From: an archaeon
GTDB lineage: Archaea; Iainarchaeota; Iainarchaeia; Iainarchaeales; CSSED10-239
Length of the DNA: 32,000 nt
Assembly (NCBI GenBank): GCA_035400625.1
Contig: DAOMZT010000001.1
Span: 30,001-62,000, forward strand
Reading direction: 5' to 3'
Part shown: one piece after another, positions 3,733-31,543 of the stretch
Numbering within the stretch: position 1 is the stretch's first letter
How the letters are laid out: every line of letters starts with the position of its first letter
Made by a program: the position numbers and the translations under genes
Notes under the pieces: generated by a model
The model's input: only the letters and a program-made list of their open reading frames with translations
Told to the model about the DNA's origin: nothing
The model's database searches: none

Positions 3733-3760
3733 ACAAGTTTTATATTTAATTATATTATAT

Positions 3761-3833
3761 AGCCTGGTAGTGTAGCGGCCAAGCATGCAAGACTCTGGAT
3801 CTTGCGACAGGAGTTCGAATCTCCTCCGGGCTA
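3761..3833 (+). tRNA. tRNA-Gln (anticodon CUG), 73 nt, no intron, no encoded CCA
   Basis: Hand fold. The acceptor AGCCTGG/CCGGGCT has 7 bp with one G-U and an A1-U72 pair. The D arm is GTGT-AGCGGCCAA-GCAT. The anticodon arm is CAAGA-CTCTGGA-TCTTG (U33, CUG, G37). The variable loop is CGAC, the T arm is AGGAG-TTCGAAT-CTCCT, and the discriminator is A. Confidence 0.9.
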
Positions 3834-3857
3834 TCATTGTGATTTGAGGGAATTACT

Positions 3858-7395: not shown

Positions 7396-9327
7396 TTAGT
7401 GGTTTTTTAGAAAGGCTACCAATTTCTTATCTATAAGCTCACTTGCCTCTTTTCCGTCAAGCAAGCCTTTTGTTTTTGCCATAAATCTGCCCATCAATAG
7501 ACCTTTGGCTCTCTCTTTTTGTGCTATTATCTTTTCTTTGTTTTCTTCAATAATCTCTGAAAGAATCTTTTCAATATCGATTTTTTCTAGATCTTTAAAG
7601 ATGCCTAGGTTTGCTATAACCTTATCAATGGGGTTATCTGAGTTGTTATATTCTAGATAAACCTCCATTAATTTTGATTTTGGGATCTTATTAAAATCTT
7701 TGTAAGAGAAAAACTCCAATAGCCCATCACTGGTTATATTTTCTAAATTTATTTTGCCGTCTCTTGAAAGATTAATCAAGTCCTCAAGAAGAAAGACAGC
7801 AACTTGTGTTGGATTAAGAGTTGGATTGTTTTTTAGGATCTTTTCAAAAGTAACTGCGAAGTTATCAAGAATCATTTTTTCTGCTAGCTGTTTACTGATT
7901 TTGAAGTTTTCTGTATAAAGCTTTCGTCTTTGTTCAACAGACAATGGCATTTCTTTTCTTGCAACATCAAGAATTTCTTTTGTAAAGATAATTGGTAATA
8001 GATCAGTCTCAGGATACATTCTTGAACCACCGGATGAAATTGGCCTTTGGTATTCTGTGTTGCCTTCGGTGTTGACAAGTCTTGTTTCTTCAGGCACACC
8101 TTTAGAGAAAAAATTTATTCTTTCTTCAAGAACTTCTTTAACTTGATCTATTTCTTGTTTATCACACATGACAAGAATGAAAGAATCTTTAGGTGTTAGT
8201 TTTAGTGCAGAATTTATGTTTTTTATGTCTTCAGAAGTTATGCCGTAATTTGGAAGCTCATCGGCATGGAAGAGACCCTTAAGAGTGGTCTTGGCTTTTA
8301 GAATGCTTGCAAGCTCTGTTCCTACTCTTCTGTTTGGCTGAACCTCTTTACCTAAAAGACCAGAAAAGCTAGGTAAGGCAAAACCAAAAATGTTTTTCTT
8401 CTGCTCAAGAGAAGATTTGATTGCCTTTGATTCTGTTTTTTTGAAAAGAGCAGTTAAATCAATTTCTGAGAGCTTTATTTCTTCTATCTTTCTTTTTTGT
8501 AGCTCTTCTTTTAGCTCTAGAAGATTTAATTGCCTAACTATTTCTCTATCTATGATCTCTGGGATCATCTCAAGGTCCTGACAACCCTTGATCTCTGTTC
8601 TAGAACCGTTAGCAATCGAGATGTTGATGTCTTGACGAATTGAACCAAGCCCTCTTTTTACTTTGCCTGTTGTTCTGAATAGCTGTCCAAGAAATAATGC
8701 GACTTTTTTAGTGTCTTCGGGCGTGTGCATATCGTGCCAAACAACCATCTCTATCAAAGGGATACCTAGGCGATCTAGAGAATAAATAACTTCTGTGTCT
8801 TTTCTTTCTATTGCTCTTGCGGCATCTTCCTCTAAAAGAATCTTATCGATTCGAACTTTTCCAAAATCAAAATCTAGATAGCCATCTGTTGAAATCATTG
8901 CTGTTCTTTGAAAGCCAGAGACATTAGAACCGTCAATTACTTGCTTTCTCATGATTATTGACTTGTCTACAAGTTTTGAGTTTGTAAGATTTGAAATAAT
9001 TACTGCAATCTTTAATGCTTCAGGGTTTGTTCTTATTGGTGGCTGACAATCAGCCTCAACCAAACAATTACAAGCATTATAAAAATGATAAACATAGGTC
9101 TTTGCTTTCTTTTGCTCTTCAAGAGCAGTTACATCAAACTCCCCTGTCTCTGAATAAACAGCACGAAGTTTTCTTTTTATTATTCTGTCTGGTTTTGTAT
9201 CTTCCTTTATCAATAGAGATTTACAATTACAGAAAAGCTTGCCAGTATCAAGTTGTTGATGAATCTCAAGACCACAAGCTAAACCTAATTTCTCATAATC
9301 GCAATTTTTAAGTTCTTCTAATTTCAT
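7396..9327 (-). CDS. gatE: Glutamyl-tRNA(Gln) amidotransferase subunit E
   Basis: The N-terminus YEKLGLACGLEIHQQL and the overall 643-aa GatB-like core with insertion and tail are typical of archaeal GatE. It sits 2 nt downstream of gatD. Confidence 0.93.
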   Translation of the reverse strand: MKLEELKNCDYEKLGLACGLEIHQQLDTGKLFCNCKSLLIKEDTKPDRIIKRKLRAVYSETGEFDVTALEEQKKAKTYVYHFYNACNCLVEADCQPPIRTNPEALKIAVIISNLTNSKLVDKSIIMRKQVIDGSNVSGFQRTAMISTDGYLDFDFGKVRIDKILLEEDAARAIERKDTEVIYSLDRLGIPLIEMVVWHDMHTPEDTKKVALFLGQLFRTTGKVKRGLGSIRQDINISIANGSRTEIKGCQDLEMIPEIIDREIVRQLNLLELKEELQKRKIEEIKLSEIDLTALFKKTESKAIKSSLEQKKNIFGFALPSFSGLLGKEVQPNRRVGTELASILKAKTTLKGLFHADELPNYGITSEDIKNINSALKLTPKDSFILVMCDKQEIDQVKEVLEERINFFSKGVPEETRLVNTEGNTEYQRPISSGGSRMYPETDLLPIIFTKEILDVARKEMPLSVEQRRKLYTENFKISKQLAEKMILDNFAVTFEKILKNNPTLNPTQVAVFLLEDLINLSRDGKINLENITSDGLLEFFSYKDFNKIPKSKLMEVYLEYNNSDNPIDKVIANLGIFKDLEKIDIEKILSEIIEENKEKIIAQKERAKGLLMGRFMAKTKGLLDGKEASELIDKKLVAFLKNH

Positions 9328-16855: not shown

Positions 16856-17971
16856 TTACTTTTTTAATTCATTGTTTACTATACCCTTAAATTTTTTTGC
16901 AGAAATTTCTGATAAATAATTATCAAGAAAATGTTTCCTTATCTTTGTAGCATGTTTTAAATTAATAATTTCTTTTTTATGCTCATTCAAAAACTTATAA
17001 ATATCCACATATTTTTTGTCTTCTGCTACAAAACCTAAAAAATCAGTAGATGCTATGTTTTTTATTGCCCCTACATTGTAAGTTAAAACCGGTATTCCAT
17101 ACATAAACGACTCTAAAATAACTAAAGGGAAACAATCATTATGGGTAGGATATATGAAGCAATTTGCTTTTTCAAAATACTTACTTTTAGCTAATCCGTG
17201 TTTGGCACCTCGCAAAATACATTCTTTTTCTAAATTTAATTCTTTTTGAACTTTTTTAAATTTATCTTCAAAATCTTTTGAACTAAACCCTCCTACAAAA
17301 TCACAAGTAAAATCAACATTATTATCTTTTAACATTTTACAAATATACAATACATCTATTGGTCCTTTAAATTCAAGCATATTGGATAAAAACAACAAAT
17401 TTAATTTATCTTTACATCTATTCTTTAATATTGTATTAAATTTAAACTTAATCTTATCAGGAATTCCATTTGGTAAAAAATACATTTGGTCTACAAGAAT
17501 TACTTTAGAATATTCTGAAATCAATGCAGGAGACAAAATGATAGTTTTTATATTTTTAAAAACAAATTTAAAATAGTGATATTTATATTTTTTATTTATA
17601 TAATTTGATAACCCTTTAGCATGAAATTGAACTAATATTTTGACTCTAAATAATTTTACTAGCAATATATAAAAGCTATCTCTTAATAATGCCAACCCTG
17701 ATGGGGCAACTTCCATATATATTAAATCAGGTTTATGAAAAATTAAATGAAATAATAATTTAAAATAATTTTTAAAAAAAACAAATATAGTAAAAAAATT
17801 AAATCGCCCCATTTGGGATATTGAGTTATAACTATTCAATTTAATCACACTTGTTTTATATTTTTTGTCATTCTTTATTAAATTATAGTAAAACTCATTA
17901 ATTTTTACAGCACCTGTTTTAGGTGGGACCCTCCTAATTAAAAATAATATTTTTTTAACCATATTTATCAA
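16856..17971 (-). CDS. Glycosyltransferase, GT4/GT1-type (GT-B fold)
   Basis: C-terminal pattern LLFLSNMLEFKGPIDVL...FIYPTHNDCFPLVILESFMYGIPVL (E-x7-E-like). It overlaps the upstream gene by 4 bp. Confidence 0.75.
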   Translation of the reverse strand: MINMVKKILFLIRRVPPKTGAVKINEFYYNLIKNDKKYKTSVIKLNSYNSISQMGRFNFFTIFVFFKNYFKLLFHLIFHKPDLIYMEVAPSGLALLRDSFYILLVKLFRVKILVQFHAKGLSNYINKKYKYHYFKFVFKNIKTIILSPALISEYSKVILVDQMYFLPNGIPDKIKFKFNTILKNRCKDKLNLLFLSNMLEFKGPIDVLYICKMLKDNNVDFTCDFVGGFSSKDFEDKFKKVQKELNLEKECILRGAKHGLAKSKYFEKANCFIYPTHNDCFPLVILESFMYGIPVLTYNVGAIKNIASTDFLGFVAEDKKYVDIYKFLNEHKKEIINLKHATKIRKHFLDNYLSEISAKKFKGIVNNELKK

Positions 17972-27902: not shown

Positions 27903-28358
27903 TTACTTAACTACAAAATAAACCTTTCTTCCAGAGTTGACTTTCTGTAAGTGGTTTGCTTTTACTAGGTTATTTAATCTCTGACTTGCAGCATTTGTTC
28001 CTTTATAGCCAAACATTTCTTTGATTTCTTCGGCATCAGCTTTTCCATGCTCCTTTATGTAGCTGATAATCCGTTCGTCTGTTTCTGGCAAAAGAACAAT
28101 TTCTAGGTTATTATTTGAGGTGTTTTTATTTTGTATGGAAGATTGTAACTTTTCGTACTTTTCATTGATTTCACTTAAGATTCTGTTGGTTTCCTTTCTT
28201 TCTTCAAGTAACTTGAAGACCAGAACAGAAAGGACTAAAGGATCTTGAGTTTTTTCCTGAATTGCCATTAAGTCAGACAACCCTAACTCCTTGAATTGAT
28301 TTCCTAACAATTGCTCAAGGAACATTCTTTTAGTCTTGTCTGTGTCATTATCTGTCAT
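27903..28358 (-). CDS. Putative winged-helix DNA-binding protein with an N-terminal coiled-coil region
   Basis: The C-terminal ETDERIISYIKEHGKADAEEIKEMFGYKGTNAASQRLNNLVKANHLQKVNSGRKVYFVV has the H1-H2-H3-wing pattern of MarR/ArsR-like wHTH domains. Confidence 0.55.
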   Translation of the reverse strand: MTDNDTDKTKRMFLEQLLGNQFKELGLSDLMAIQEKTQDPLVLSVLVFKLLEERKETNRILSEINEKYEKLQSSIQNKNTSNNNLEIVLLPETDERIISYIKEHGKADAEEIKEMFGYKGTNAASQRLNNLVKANHLQKVNSGRKVYFVVK

Positions 28359-28360
28359 AG

Positions 28361-28383
28361 TATATCATGATATAGTCATGACT
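28361..28383. promoter_or_regulatory. Two adjacent perfect palindromes sharing a TCATGA core (TATATCATGATATA 28361-28374; AGTCATGACT 28374-28383) between a TATA-like element and the wHTH gene ATG
   Basis: Read directly from the sequence. The TCATGA cores at 28365-28370 and 28376-28381 are 11 nt apart. On the minus strand, CTTTTTATATT lies just upstream. Confidence 0.35.
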
Positions 28384-28710
28384 TTAATATAAAAAGATCG
28401 CTTTCGCTTTTTTTAGAAAAAGAAGTTTTTTGGTTAGAAATCCTAACCATTGGTTGTTTTTTAGCAAAAAAAATAGGCTTTTATCAAAAATTAGGGTCTA
28501 TAAGCGAATTTTGTTTCTTGCTAAGTATATTGTACAAACAACGCAAGCCGTAAGTACTCCTGAAAACTCAAGAACATCTAAAAGCATCATAACCTATCAC
28601 CATTTTCCTTTAAATTTTATATATCTGTATTAGTTTTGCAACTATCTTATTAATAAATGATTGTGTTTGATTTTTTAACTTTTAAGCACAAAAAAATAGG
28701 AAAGGAAACT

Positions 28711-29796
28711 TTAGAACACTCTGGACTCTCTTCTTGGAAATCTAAAGCCATAACTTTTGGTTTTCTCAAGTATCTTGTTAGTAATTAGATCTATTTCTTG
28801 AAGAGTCAAGCGACTTCTTATGTCTGCCTCTATTAAAACTGAAGGGTAGGTGTATTTTGGGTTAAAAGAAGATATCTCAGACACCATTTGAACAAGCTTT
28901 TCTGTGTAGTCCTTTAGAGAAAGACCAAACTCCTTGTAATAAACAAACTCCAGCCTTAGAGGATAATCATTATCTGAAAGTTTCAAATAACAACAATAGA
29001 GATTGTCCCTTATCTCTTCAGGGAAATCAGAAAGTATTGGGTGGGACTTAGGATCCTTGGAATATTTAAAGACACCTGTTCTTTGATTTTTAGAAAGCAG
29101 AGAAAAAACTAAAAAAGCATCAAATAACTCAAAGTCAAAATTTTGATCATTAAAGATTTCTTCTTTTAAAACTGAAAAGAAACGATTTGCCCTAGAGTCT
29201 TCAATTGCACCTGCTAAGAAAATCTTTTTCTCTCTTGCTTCTTTGTAAACAAACAAGAATCTAGAAAGCAAATACTCGTATTTCTTTTTTTGAGGACAAT
29301 CCCTTGTTGGCTTGTTGATGTATTGAGGAATTATGGAGCCGTCAAACAAAAGAAGGTCGGGGACGTTGTTGCATTGTCCAAGAATTAGTGAAGAAATTTG
29401 CAGTTCTTTTTCTAAGCGAGAAATAGATGTGTTCCACATTATTTCTTCTAGTTCTAATGAAGAACTTGAAAGATAGGGTTTTGGCAGATTATACATGTTT
29501 GGAAAATACCTATAGTCTTTTAATTCCCCGTCTTGATAATCAAAAAACACCCCGCTTTCTTTTATGATTGTAATATTTGCAAAATTTAGTTGCTTAGACA
29601 CAAACCCTGAATCAACACCTGCAACTTTTAAAGAAAAGTTTCTTTCATATGAAATGTTCTCTATCAGTTTTTCTTCAGGATTATAAGGATTAGCTACTTC
29701 AGAGATATTAAGAGATCTAAGACGAGAAATAAAGACTTGATTCTTATTATAGGTATTAAGCATCTGCTCAACAATGTTATTAATATCTTGTTCCAT
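28711..29796 (-). CDS. nurA: NurA-like 5'-3' nuclease domain protein
   Basis: KVAGVDSGF (Asp62), SRLEKELQ (Glu129/131), DLLLFDGSIIPQ (Asp152, 21 residues after Glu131) and the C-terminal YTYPSVLIEADIRSR match the order and spacing I recall for the NurA catalytic motifs. The call is motif-based only. Confidence 0.6.
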   Translation of the reverse strand: MEQDINNIVEQMLNTYNKNQVFISRLRSLNISEVANPYNPEEKLIENISYERNFSLKVAGVDSGFVSKQLNFANITIIKESGVFFDYQDGELKDYRYFPNMYNLPKPYLSSSSLELEEIMWNTSISRLEKELQISSLILGQCNNVPDLLLFDGSIIPQYINKPTRDCPQKKKYEYLLSRFLFVYKEAREKKIFLAGAIEDSRANRFFSVLKEEIFNDQNFDFELFDAFLVFSLLSKNQRTGVFKYSKDPKSHPILSDFPEEIRDNLYCCYLKLSDNDYPLRLEFVYYKEFGLSLKDYTEKLVQMVSEISSFNPKYTYPSVLIEADIRSRLTLQEIDLITNKILEKTKSYGFRFPRRESRVF

Positions 29797-29798
29797 GT

Positions 29799-30287
29799 TT
29801 ACTCCAAATTTAATTCTTTCAATAACTCTTTTTCAGTAATTAATTTCTCTTTTTTTAATTTTTTTCTTATTTTCTTAACATATTCTATATCTTCTATAGT
29901 TTCATATTCATCTAGTTTTTCTTTAATAAACTTCATAAATTTCTTATCATTAGTTTCTTTCCCTGCAGTTATATAATATATTTTCAATTGAGGGGATTTT
30001 AATACATTTGTAAATTCTGAATTTGTTTCTGGGTTAAAATAAGTATATATGTATTTTCTATGCCCTACAGAAAGAATGTATATTTTATCAGATTTAAATT
30101 CATAAATAACCCTATAATTTCCTATATGTAAACTTCTACAACCGCTTAGTTCGTGTGACAGTGGTTTTCCTAGTTCTGGGTTTTCAGATAATTGCTCTAG
30201 TTTTTTAAATATTTGATCTTCGATTTTTTTGTCTAATGATTTTAATATTTTCTTTTGTTTTTCTGTAATATAAATCTCAAAGGTCAT
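29799..30287 (-). CDS. RelE/ParE-family toxin domain (aa 1 to about 80) fused to a C-terminal extension of about 80 aa
   Basis: KSLDKKIEDQIFKKLEQLSENPELGKPLSHELSGCRSLHIGNYRVIYEFKSDKIYILSVGHRKYIY is a standard RelE/ParE pattern. It overlaps the upstream antitoxin gene by 4 bp. Confidence 0.75.
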   Translation of the reverse strand: MTFEIYITEKQKKILKSLDKKIEDQIFKKLEQLSENPELGKPLSHELSGCRSLHIGNYRVIYEFKSDKIYILSVGHRKYIYTYFNPETNSEFTNVLKSPQLKIYYITAGKETNDKKFMKFIKEKLDEYETIEDIEYVKKIRKKLKKEKLITEKELLKELNLE

Positions 30288-30505
30288 ATCCTTCCCATCT
30301 CTTTTTTTAAATCAGAAAATTTAATCCCTTTCCCTTCTTTATATTCTTTTCTTGCTTGCGTAACTTCTTTTAAGTCATCAAGCATTTCCATATGATTTAT
30401 TTTTTCGGCAAATGCTTTTCTTGCAACTTCACTCCACCTTATTTCAGAATAATTCTTCATTTTATCATACATTTCTTGCGAAATACTTAGAGTCATATTT
30501 GGCAT
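30284..30505 (-). CDS. Ribbon-helix-helix (CopG-like) type II antitoxin
   Basis: MTLSISQEMYDKMKNY..WSEVARKAFAEKI shows a beta-alpha-alpha pattern, followed by a K/E-rich tail. GGTGA lies 6 nt upstream of the ATG. The gene sits immediately 5' of the RelE-like gene. Confidence 0.7.
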   Translation of the reverse strand: MPNMTLSISQEMYDKMKNYSEIRWSEVARKAFAEKINHMEMLDDLKEVTQARKEYKEGKGIKFSDLKKEMGRI

Positions 30506-30547
30506 AGTTTATCACCAAATAAGTTAATAATCAAACAGTTTTTAAAT

Positions 30548-30572
30548 ATGTGTAACCGCATAAACTACACAT
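30548..30572. promoter_or_regulatory. Inverted repeat ATGTGTA-N11-TACACAT in the antitoxin promoter region; candidate autoregulatory operator
   Basis: Read directly from the sequence. It lies 43-67 nt upstream of the antitoxin ATG, and AT-rich TATA-like tracts flank it on both sides. Confidence 0.3.
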
Positions 30573-30652
30573 TTCTAATTATTATAAATATATTATAGAA
30601 TTAGTAGTTTAAAAAGCTTTTGAGGGTAGATGTCCAGTGCGAAAAAAGAAAA

Positions 30653-31543
30653 TTACATCGCCTCTAGTCTTTTGATTCTTTCTTGTATTGGTGGATGAGT
30701 GGAGAACAGATTTGACAACCCACCTGATGAAAGAGGATTAGCAATATAAAGATGAGCAGTGCCTTTACTTGCATTCTTTACTGGCTGATTAAATCCAGAA
30801 ATCTTTCTTAAAGCACTTGCAAGCCCTTGAGGATATCGTGTTAATTTTCCTGCTGAAGAGTCTGCAAGATATTCTCTGTTTCTAGATAATGCCATTTGAA
30901 TAATAAAAGCAATAAGCGGAGCAAGAATAACTAAAACAATTGCAAGAATTAACAAAGGTATATTCTTATTATCTCGATCTCCACTACCACCATAAATCAT
31001 CCCTCTTAAAGCAATATCTGAAGTTATTGAAACAATACCAAAAAGAACAGAAACAAAGGTCATAACCTGTATATCTCTATTCTGTATATGAGACATCTCA
31101 TGAGCAATTACTCCCTCTAGTTCTTGCCTATTCATCATCTCTAAAAGACCAGTAGTTACAGCAATAGATGAATGCTTTGGATTTCTTCCAGTAGCAAACG
31201 CATTTGGAGACTTATCTTCAATTACATAAACTTTAGGTTTTGGTATTCCCGCAGAAAGAGACAAGCCCTCAACAAGATTAATAAGATAAACATGTTTCTT
31301 CTCATCAGCCTCTTTTGCGCCACTTGTTGCTAAAACAATTTTGTCACCTAGAAAATAACCAATAATTGCATAAACTATTGCAATAACACCAGCAATAAAC
31401 AATATTCCAAAACCTGTAAAATTAAAGATGTACTTTATTGCAATGGCAAGTAAAAATATAAATGCAAAAAAACCAATAAATAAAAATACGGTTTTTAGTT
31501 TATTACTATTAATCTCACTAAAAATATCTCTTCTTTCTGCCAT
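30653..31543 (-). CDS. htpX: HtpX-like M48 zinc metalloprotease (membrane)
   Basis: HEMSHIQNRD (HExxH), two N-terminal and two central TM spans, and the C-terminal STHPPIQERI. Confidence 0.9.
   Translation of the reverse strand: MAERRDIFSEINSNKLKTVFLFIGFFAFIFLLAIAIKYIFNFTGFGILFIAGVIAIVYAIIGYFLGDKIVLATSGAKEADEKKHVYLINLVEGLSLSAGIPKPKVYVIEDKSPNAFATGRNPKHSSIAVTTGLLEMMNRQELEGVIAHEMSHIQNRDIQVMTFVSVLFGIVSITSDIALRGMIYGGSGDRDNKNIPLLILAIVLVILAPLIAFIIQMALSRNREYLADSSAGKLTRYPQGLASALRKISGFNQPVKNASKGTAHLYIANPLSSGGLSNLFSTHPPIQERIKRLEAM

Follow-up and report, generated by a model that had tools for sequence, protein, structure and literature searches.

A stretch of 32,000 nt from an archaeal genome (contig DAOMZT010000001.1; hereafter the window) carries three tightly packed genes on its minus strand, which raises the question of whether these genes act as one module or whether a toxin-antitoxin (TA) cassette has been inserted beside a core gene. 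In the order of transcription, they encode a ribbon-helix-helix (RHH) antitoxin, a RelE-like toxin, and a NurA-like nuclease. Archaeal NurA works with the HerA helicase in DNA-end resection, and its gene is typically clustered with herA, mre11, and rad50. The original prediction for this locus, whose account of the packing, coordinates, and junctions agrees with our reading of the open reading frames (ORFs) and the sequence, proposed either a three-component toxin or abortive-infection module or a TA cassette inserted before a housekeeping nurA. We found that the second proposal is borne out by distant orthologues, in which herA adjoins nurA and TA genes are missing. We consider it quite probable that a type II RelBE cassette is an accessory, exchangeable insert between htpX and nurA, and that this NurA is an ordinary end-resection nuclease. 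The cassette itself is old in the clade and, as far as sampled, bound to this locus.

In a compact genome, closely packed genes can look like a functional module even when they are not one. The RHH and relE genes overlap by 4 bp (ATGA), and the relE stop codon (TAA, 29801-29799) is followed by AC and then by the nurA ATG (29796), which leaves a gap of 2 nt. The Shine-Dalgarno (SD) sequence of nurA (GGAG, 29805-29802) lies inside the last relE codons. Such packing is the rule in the source genome; other examples are gaps of 2 nt at 9327/9330 and 20531/20534, and genes overlapping by 4 bp at 17968/17971. It is the comparison of neighborhoods that separates a core gene from an accessory cassette. 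This genome-wide packing, the variable states of the arrangement, and some 77 toxin residues that are not RelE all go beyond the original prediction.

We concluded from its Pfam score, from a confident model matching solved NurA structures, and from invariant acidic residues that the 361-amino-acid (aa) protein is a genuine NurA with an intact active site. In the Pfam scan, PF09376 matched residues 57-291 with 34.7 bits (gathering cutoff 21), and the same domain is present in 104/104 homologues, several of which are named NurA by NCBI. The AlphaFold2 (AF2) model had a pLDDT of 92.2 and a pTM of 0.90. Its top Foldseek match was S. solfataricus NurA (2ygk, E 2.2e-11, TM 0.55/0.61), and further top matches were T. 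kodakarensis HerA-NurA (9x1n) and P. furiosus NurA (3taz/3tal/3tai), and then EndoV and PIWI. A NurA profile searched against PDB sequences gave no match at E <= 0.01. The predicted motifs are all present in the expected order: GVDSG (D62), RLEKE (E131), LFDGS (D152, 21 residues past E131), and YPSVLIEAD (D325). None of these four acidic residues varies across 56 homologues spanning 24-90% identity, and they are probably equivalent to the catalytic residues of solved NurA. Given the PF09376 match and the invariant acidic residues, a misidentification of NurA, which had been named as a way for the prediction to fail, was not seen; the RelE-like and RHH assignments were likewise correct by Pfam.

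We then compared about 120 related loci, most of which were fetched through NurA, so that the sampling is biased. The clade of interest was defined as NurA proteins at least 50% identical to that of the window, and it is monophyletic in the NurA tree. The NurA homologues are named Diapherotrites, Iainarchaeum, or Ainarchaeum, and the NurA of Ca. Forterrea multitransposorum (complete genome CP045477) is 55% identical. The nurA gene of the window is the housekeeping orthologue of this Forterrea-like clade of AT-rich Iainarchaeota (DPANN). Its backbone is HtpX-NurA-wHTH (winged helix-turn-helix), with htpX upstream of nurA throughout and the wHTH gene downstream in nearly all loci. Where the cassette is missing, htpX stands directly upstream of nurA, with a spacer of 23-225 nt.

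The predicted lack of HerA, Mre11, and Rad50 nearby holds over about 42 kb, as none of these domains (DUF87 for HerA) was found in window ORFs of at least 90 aa or in the 10 kb past its right end. No herA was found within 8 kb on either side of nurA in the clade loci. Among NurA orthologues of 40% identity or less, herA lies +9 to +2200 nt downstream of nurA on the same strand, often with rad50 nearby, and the clade is sister to these herA-linked orthologues in the NurA tree. Judged from gene order and tree, nurA has moved away from herA in this clade while the outgroups keep the pair. The NurA here shares its fold, Pfam signature, and acidic residues with known HerA-NurA systems (2YGK, 9X1N, 3TAI) and is orthologous to herA-adjacent Iainarchaeota nurA, but it differs from them in that the clade nurA follows htpX or a TA cassette and is not beside herA, mre11, or rad50 (none within 8-42 kb). 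Clustering with herA is typical, not obligatory, for the NurA family, and a family-level DPANN clade has broken a near-universal linkage.

The spacer between htpX and nurA was found in several states. Among 32 distinct NurA lineages, 12 carry RHH and RelE, 7 carry RHH only, 13 carry neither, and none carries RelE only. This tally fits the direction of decay expected for a real toxin with its antidote. In the RHH-only lineages, the RHH gene usually overlaps the nurA start. RHH is cut to 44-48 aa in two lineages (L017/L055 and L024; locus numbers are ours), and L055 keeps just this remnant. The Forterrea loci show three upstream states in front of near-identical nurA genes, a strain-level polymorphism in which the flanking genes too are nearly the same. 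L070 has RHH and a 260-aa RelE before nurA. L074, which is the complete genome CP045477, has a precise deletion of the toxin gene of about 790 bp, with RHH and the operator/promoter retained, and L078 has no cassette but the last ~40 nt before nurA in common with L070. In the NurA tree, the cassette states are scattered over both sides of the clade's basal split, and each side has cassette-bearing members. In L060-L062, the order is nurA-htpX-RHH-RelE, and thus the cassette there stays with the 3' end of htpX and not with nurA. The predicted gene order does recur in relatives, as one of several states only. In all '162-type' loci, the three genes have identical tight spacing, and two more long-form toxins, found independently of NurA, again show the order HtpX-RHH-RelE162-NurA-wHTH.

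To follow the divergence of the three genes, we correlated their identities over 55 pairs. RHH and RelE identities are correlated (Spearman 0.69, p 5e-9), while RHH-NurA and RelE-NurA give 0.15 and 0.12 (Spearman, both not significant). For example, L001 and L015 share 87% identity in NurA, 49% in RHH, and 43% in RelE. At least two cassette alleles circulate in the window's own subclade. Compared with L122, the toxin of L001 is mosaic, 66% identical in the N-domain and 82% in the antitoxin-like tail, which points to recombination within the cassette. The mosaic toxin and the missing correlation with NurA indicate that the cassette was replaced or recombined independently of nurA. Co-inheritance of cassette and nurA, hinted at by two early comparisons (75/75% and 50/50% identity), was rejected by the 55-pair analysis. 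In viral contigs, NurA of the clade was absent and one short RelE was found. A TA family that persists at one chromosomal spacer through allele replacement and directional decay is a natural system for studying archaeal TA turnover.

These results bear on the three-component module of the original prediction, in which RHH, the extended RelE, and NurA would act together, for example in abortive infection or stress, with the DNA nuclease as a second effector or under control of the toxin tail. We judge such a module very unlikely. NurA occurs without the cassette in 13 of the 32 lineages, where every catalytic residue is still in place, three different upstream states are found with near-identical NurA proteins, and the cassette and NurA do not co-diverge. 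Furthermore, L060-L062 have the cassette after htpX and nurA at the opposite end of htpX, NurA is plainly orthologous to herA-linked NurA, and none of the three proteins matches a PADLOC defence model. The identical spacing in the '162-type' loci, a cassette family seen only before nurA, its presence on both sides of the basal split, and a nurA uncoupled from herA exactly in this clade are nevertheless in favor of joint action, and the toxin extras (an antitoxin-like tail or a NUDIX domain) could be sensors or adaptors. No NurA-TA module was described in the literature searched, in which we also found nothing relevant on DPANN HerA/NurA. In tripartite TA systems (paaR-paaA-parE, toxin-antitoxin-chaperone), the third gene strictly co-occurs with the pair and acts on it. 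The locus resembles them in its three packed, co-oriented genes, with a small DNA-binding protein first and a RelE/ParE-fold toxin, but its third gene belongs to the housekeeping core and is found whether or not the pair is there.

Several points nonetheless weigh against the cassette being only an accessory. All cassettes of this family were seen at this one locus, in a sample biased towards NurA. Since cassettes or their remnants occur to either side of the deepest split, the association is a long-standing and lasting one. In the phylogeny, the cassette appears where the herA linkage is lost, and HerA was not located in any clade genome among the 120 matches listed in our search (see below). 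Finally, the orphan RHH is under purifying selection, which suggests that the antitoxin may have gained a role tied to nurA.

The last point leads to another explanation, in which RHH, with or without the toxin, has become a dedicated transcriptional regulator of nurA and the toxin is dispensable baggage. The orphan RHH91 is an intact ORF in 3 diverged lineages, and its ratio of nonsynonymous to synonymous substitution rates (dN/dS) of 0.18 equals that of NurA for the same pair, a rough value with dS near saturation. Since the orphan RHH overlaps the nurA start and is under purifying selection, a nurA-tied role is conceivable. The 7 lineages that keep a toxin-less RHH directly upstream of nurA, and the operator and promoter kept with RHH after the Forterrea toxin deletion, point the same way. 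However, RHH is truncated in L017/L055 and L024 and absent in 13 lineages, so nurA does not need it, and orphan antitoxins can persist as protection against incoming cassettes. We hold a domesticated antitoxin to be unlikely.

A bolder reading is that NurA was uncoupled from HerA, or HerA was lost, and that NurA came under a stress-responsive RelBE switch whose toxin carries an antitoxin-like tail in cis or, in sister alleles, a NUDIX sensor domain. If this were true, derepression would release an mRNA interferase together with a DNA-end nuclease, an undescribed TA-gated DNA nuclease module. We regard this as a decidedly remote prospect; we leave it some probability mainly because no clade HerA was found among the matches listed in our search. 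Our HerA search used a profile built from 11 outgroup HerA sequences and gave thousands of matches, of which the best 120 were listed. Judged by accession series and amino-acid composition, none of the 120 listed is an AT-rich clade HerA. The share of F, Y, M, I, N, and K (FYMINK fraction) is 0.27 in the listed HerA versus 0.40 in clade NurA. P0121 proved to belong to an outgroup genome with the order nurA-mazG-herA. In the clade, HerA may have diverged further or be missing.

Two side observations concern HerA and its surroundings. In outgroup Iainarchaeota, a small gene for a nucleotide or phosphate hydrolase was found between nurA and herA (HAD in L013, 7136-7819; MazG in L119, 4684-5004), and a conserved protein of about 500 aa with no Pfam match is encoded 3' of herA in the loci with the wedged hydrolase. 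Four HerA homologues of Diapherotrites (P0162, P0221, P0227, P0231) are ~850 aa long, about 340 aa longer than usual. Two long Diapherotrites HerA proteins have a precomputed PF14528 match and an insert in the ATPase domain, which is consistent with an intein.

The cassette looks functional from its sequence, given PDB matches to RelE only, invariant residues, dN/dS values, directional decay, and a conserved operator layout. The toxin is predicted to be a RelE-type mRNA interferase. ParE_toxin (PF05016) matched residues 12-79 only, with 55.4 bits (cutoff 23), and the toxin family profile found only RelE-type toxins in the PDB: 2khe, 3g5o, E. coli RelE (4fxe/4v7j), and M. jannaschii RelE3 (3bpq). 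The N-domain was modelled by AF2 with a pLDDT of 72-90 and a b-a-a-b-b-b topology. R59, Y62, R77, and Y81 are invariant in 11 alleles and probably map onto R61/R81/Y87 of E. coli RelE. The dN/dS values of RHH, the toxin domain, and the extension are well below 1, with dS near saturation.

The RHH fold of the antitoxin is supported by a precomputed Pfam match to RHH_12 (PF26688); separate scans gave only sub-threshold VapB_Sulfo (NCBIfam) and RelB, and an RHH profile search of PDB sequences gave no match. Its C-terminal motif, K.G..I....L.KELG, is typical of aRelB. The RHH gene is always upstream of the toxin gene and overlaps it. The same layout is known from type II RelBE systems (E. coli RelBE, 4FXE; M. 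jannaschii RelBE3, 3BPQ), which likewise begin with a small antitoxin gene whose end overlaps the gene of a RelE-fold toxin. Common to both are a palindromic promoter operator (putative in the cassette here), conserved basic and aromatic mRNA-interferase residues, and decay that leaves antitoxin-only remnants. P. horikoshii aRelBE is a further archaeal system of this type. The cassette differs from RelBE in its toxin, which has 162 aa rather than ~85-95, with a conserved linker and a copy of the C-terminal half of the antitoxin. Two further differences are that sister alleles have a NUDIX domain in place of this extension and that a DNA-repair nuclease gene follows without a terminator.

About 77 residues of the toxin (86-162) are not RelE and are strongly conserved in 8 close homologues. 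The linker (residues 86-114) has the consensus FNP..N..FT..L.SP..K..YITAGK.TN and a low-confidence structure, and its L[KR]SP..K motif recurs in the toxins of L011 and L070. The final 48 residues show homology to positions 26-73 of the antitoxin family (hhalign probability 97.3%, E 1.9e-11, score 57.9), as compared with a score of 15.9 for the reversed control and a mean of 10.5 (maximum 19.5) for 300 column shuffles. By this profile comparison, the tail is a copy of the toxin-binding half of the antitoxin, lacking its N-terminal ribbon strand. The dN/dS of the tail is 0.13-0.34, rough values with dS near saturation. AF2 confidence in the extension is low (45-57), and no fold could be assigned to it.

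A profile of the whole toxin was compared with 1.84 billion protein cluster representatives, among which only the toxin's own cluster covers all 162 positions. Apart from a small number of partial long forms, the other representatives matched are canonical RelE of 80-95 aa. In two loci (L070:7192-7974 and L063:7142-7945), the position of the toxin before nurA is taken by RelE-NUDIX fusions of 260 and 267 aa, in which ParE_toxin and a complete NUDIX domain both score above their Pfam cutoffs. We found no description of RelE-NUDIX fusions in the literature searched. Among the 1.84 billion clusters, a RelE with an antitoxin-half copy or a NUDIX domain is essentially confined to this group.

The antitoxin-like tail and NUDIX architectures suggest cis-regulation of a RelE toxin, and we speculate that the tail is a built-in neutralising or regulatory element. 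CapRel(SJ46) and EzeT are toxins with such a built-in antitoxin element, and they resemble the toxin here in combining a toxin domain and an antitoxin-related segment in one polypeptide. Unlike them, the cassette also has a separate, complete antitoxin gene, and its fused segment has no DNA-binding ribbon and a low AF2 confidence.

Related genes were also seen outside the toxin. A free-standing ORF of 96-99 aa lies between htpX and RHH or nurA in four loci (L077:1286-1585, L079:7155-7454, L072, and L075). It resembles the C-terminal extension of the 188-aa toxin of L011 (62-71% over ~50 residues), so toxin extensions occur as separate genes too. L011 also has a separate wHTH(DUF7347)-NUDIX gene directly 3' of nurA.

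The promoter region of the RHH gene contains an imperfect palindrome with 13-nt arms that are 85% complementary and an 11-nt spacer. In 10 other cassette alleles, a GTGT..ACAC palindrome is followed by TTTATAAA/TTTAAAA and then by GGTGAT before the RHH gene. The palindrome is a candidate autoregulatory operator. An RHH dimer, alone or with the toxin, would bind it over the TATA-like box and repress the cassette promoter, and the ATGA overlap would couple the translation of RHH and relE.

The nurA gene is probably the third cistron of this antitoxin-controlled transcript in the window, as it has a 2-nt gap after the relE stop, its own SD, and no intervening oligo-T terminator. A scan of the sense strand found oligo-T runs after htpX (30647-30642) and after nurA (a T7 run), and none from the RHH promoter to the nurA start. 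The antitoxin-controlled mRNA would therefore end at the T7 run past nurA. Some cassette-free relatives have a htpX-nurA spacer of only 23-36 nt, which can be too short for a promoter, and so nurA seems generally to ride on the transcript of the upstream gene. On this account, the coupling of cassette and nurA would be positional, an operon fusion with no functional dependence, and NurA persists in lineages that have lost the toxin or all of the cassette. Should the antitoxin-controlled promoter indeed drive nurA, the capacity of these organisms for end resection would be linked to TA autoregulation.

Alternatively, the genes could be merely juxtaposed, with a nurA promoter within the 3' end of relE and a cassette mRNA that ends or is processed before nurA. 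Over the final 150 nt of relE in the window lineage, synonymous-site conservation revealed no promoter-like block beyond codon constraints. Together with the lack of an oligo-T terminator before nurA, the 2-nt gap with the SD inside relE, and the short cassette-free spacers, this argues against separate transcription, which appears improbable to us. On the other hand, the ~40 nt before the nurA ATG that Forterrea keeps with and without the cassette include a T/A-rich box, and AT-rich coding sequence easily hides a TATA box. The positions of these elements and of the genes are listed in Table 1.

Table 1. Positions of the cassette, nurA, their putative signals, and the flanking core genes in the window.
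Feature	Positions	Strand	Evidence or remark
RHH antitoxin, 73 aa, aRelB-like	30284-30505	-	ORF
RelE-like toxin, 162 aa	29799-30287	-	ORF; ATGA 30287-30284 shared with the end of the RHH gene
RelE-type toxin domain, residues 1-85	30033-30287	-	PF05016
Toxin linker, residues 86-114	29946-30032	-	Invariant alignment positions
Antitoxin-like toxin tail, residues 115-162	29802-29945	-	hhalign; contains the nurA SD GGAG
NurA nuclease, 361 aa, housekeeping orthologue	28711-29796	-	PF09376, AF2 model, Foldseek
Putative operator, imperfect palindrome TTAGAAATGTGTA ... TACACATATTTAA (sense strand)	30542-30578	-	Repeat search
TATA-like box TTTAAAAA	~30546-30539	-	Overlapped by the promoter-proximal palindrome arm
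SD GGTGAT, 5 nt before the RHH ATG	30511-30516	-	Sequence; conserved in relatives
Oligo-T run (T7), 15 nt past the nurA stop; likely archaeal terminator	28690-28696	-	Sense-strand scan
htpX (M48 peptidase), upstream core neighbor, outside the cassette	30653-31543	-	PF01435, 123.6 bits
wHTH-like protein, 151 aa, downstream core neighbor, outside the cassette	27903-28358	-	Weak ArsR/MarR-type matches

The window has a GC content of 29%, and the base composition of the cassette showed no clear anomaly. The other genes of the window are housekeeping or cell-envelope genes (GatD/GatE, a class I aminoacyl-tRNA synthetase, TldD/PmbA, glycosyltransferases, EndoIII, HtpX). A tRNA-Gln(CTG) gene at 3760-3835 on the plus strand was the sole RNA gene detected in the window, Rfam included.

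Three minor elements near the locus were also conserved. A relatively GC-rich non-coding element, TTCGCACTGGACATCTACCCTCAAAAGCTTTTTAAAC, lies just 3' of the htpX stop (~30605-30641, minus strand), and the subclade of the window has conserved it. L055 has the element 570 nt from htpX, still 5' of the RHH remnant. The element may serve the cassette in transcription, as an upstream promoter, or in processing. A conserved, unannotated 30-codon ORF (28498-28590, minus strand) with its own GGTGAT SD was found in the interval from nurA to the wHTH gene. Its product, MMLLDVLEFSGVLTACVVCTIYLARNKIRL, is a small, hydrophobic, probably single-pass membrane peptide, and the protein is conserved in 6 related loci. 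Directly 5' of the wHTH gene (~28359-28385, minus strand), the 27-nt sequence AAAGTCATGACTATATCATGATATACT contains two TCATGA palindromes and is invariant in 7 lineages with variable flanks; it is probably the operator of the 151-aa wHTH protein.

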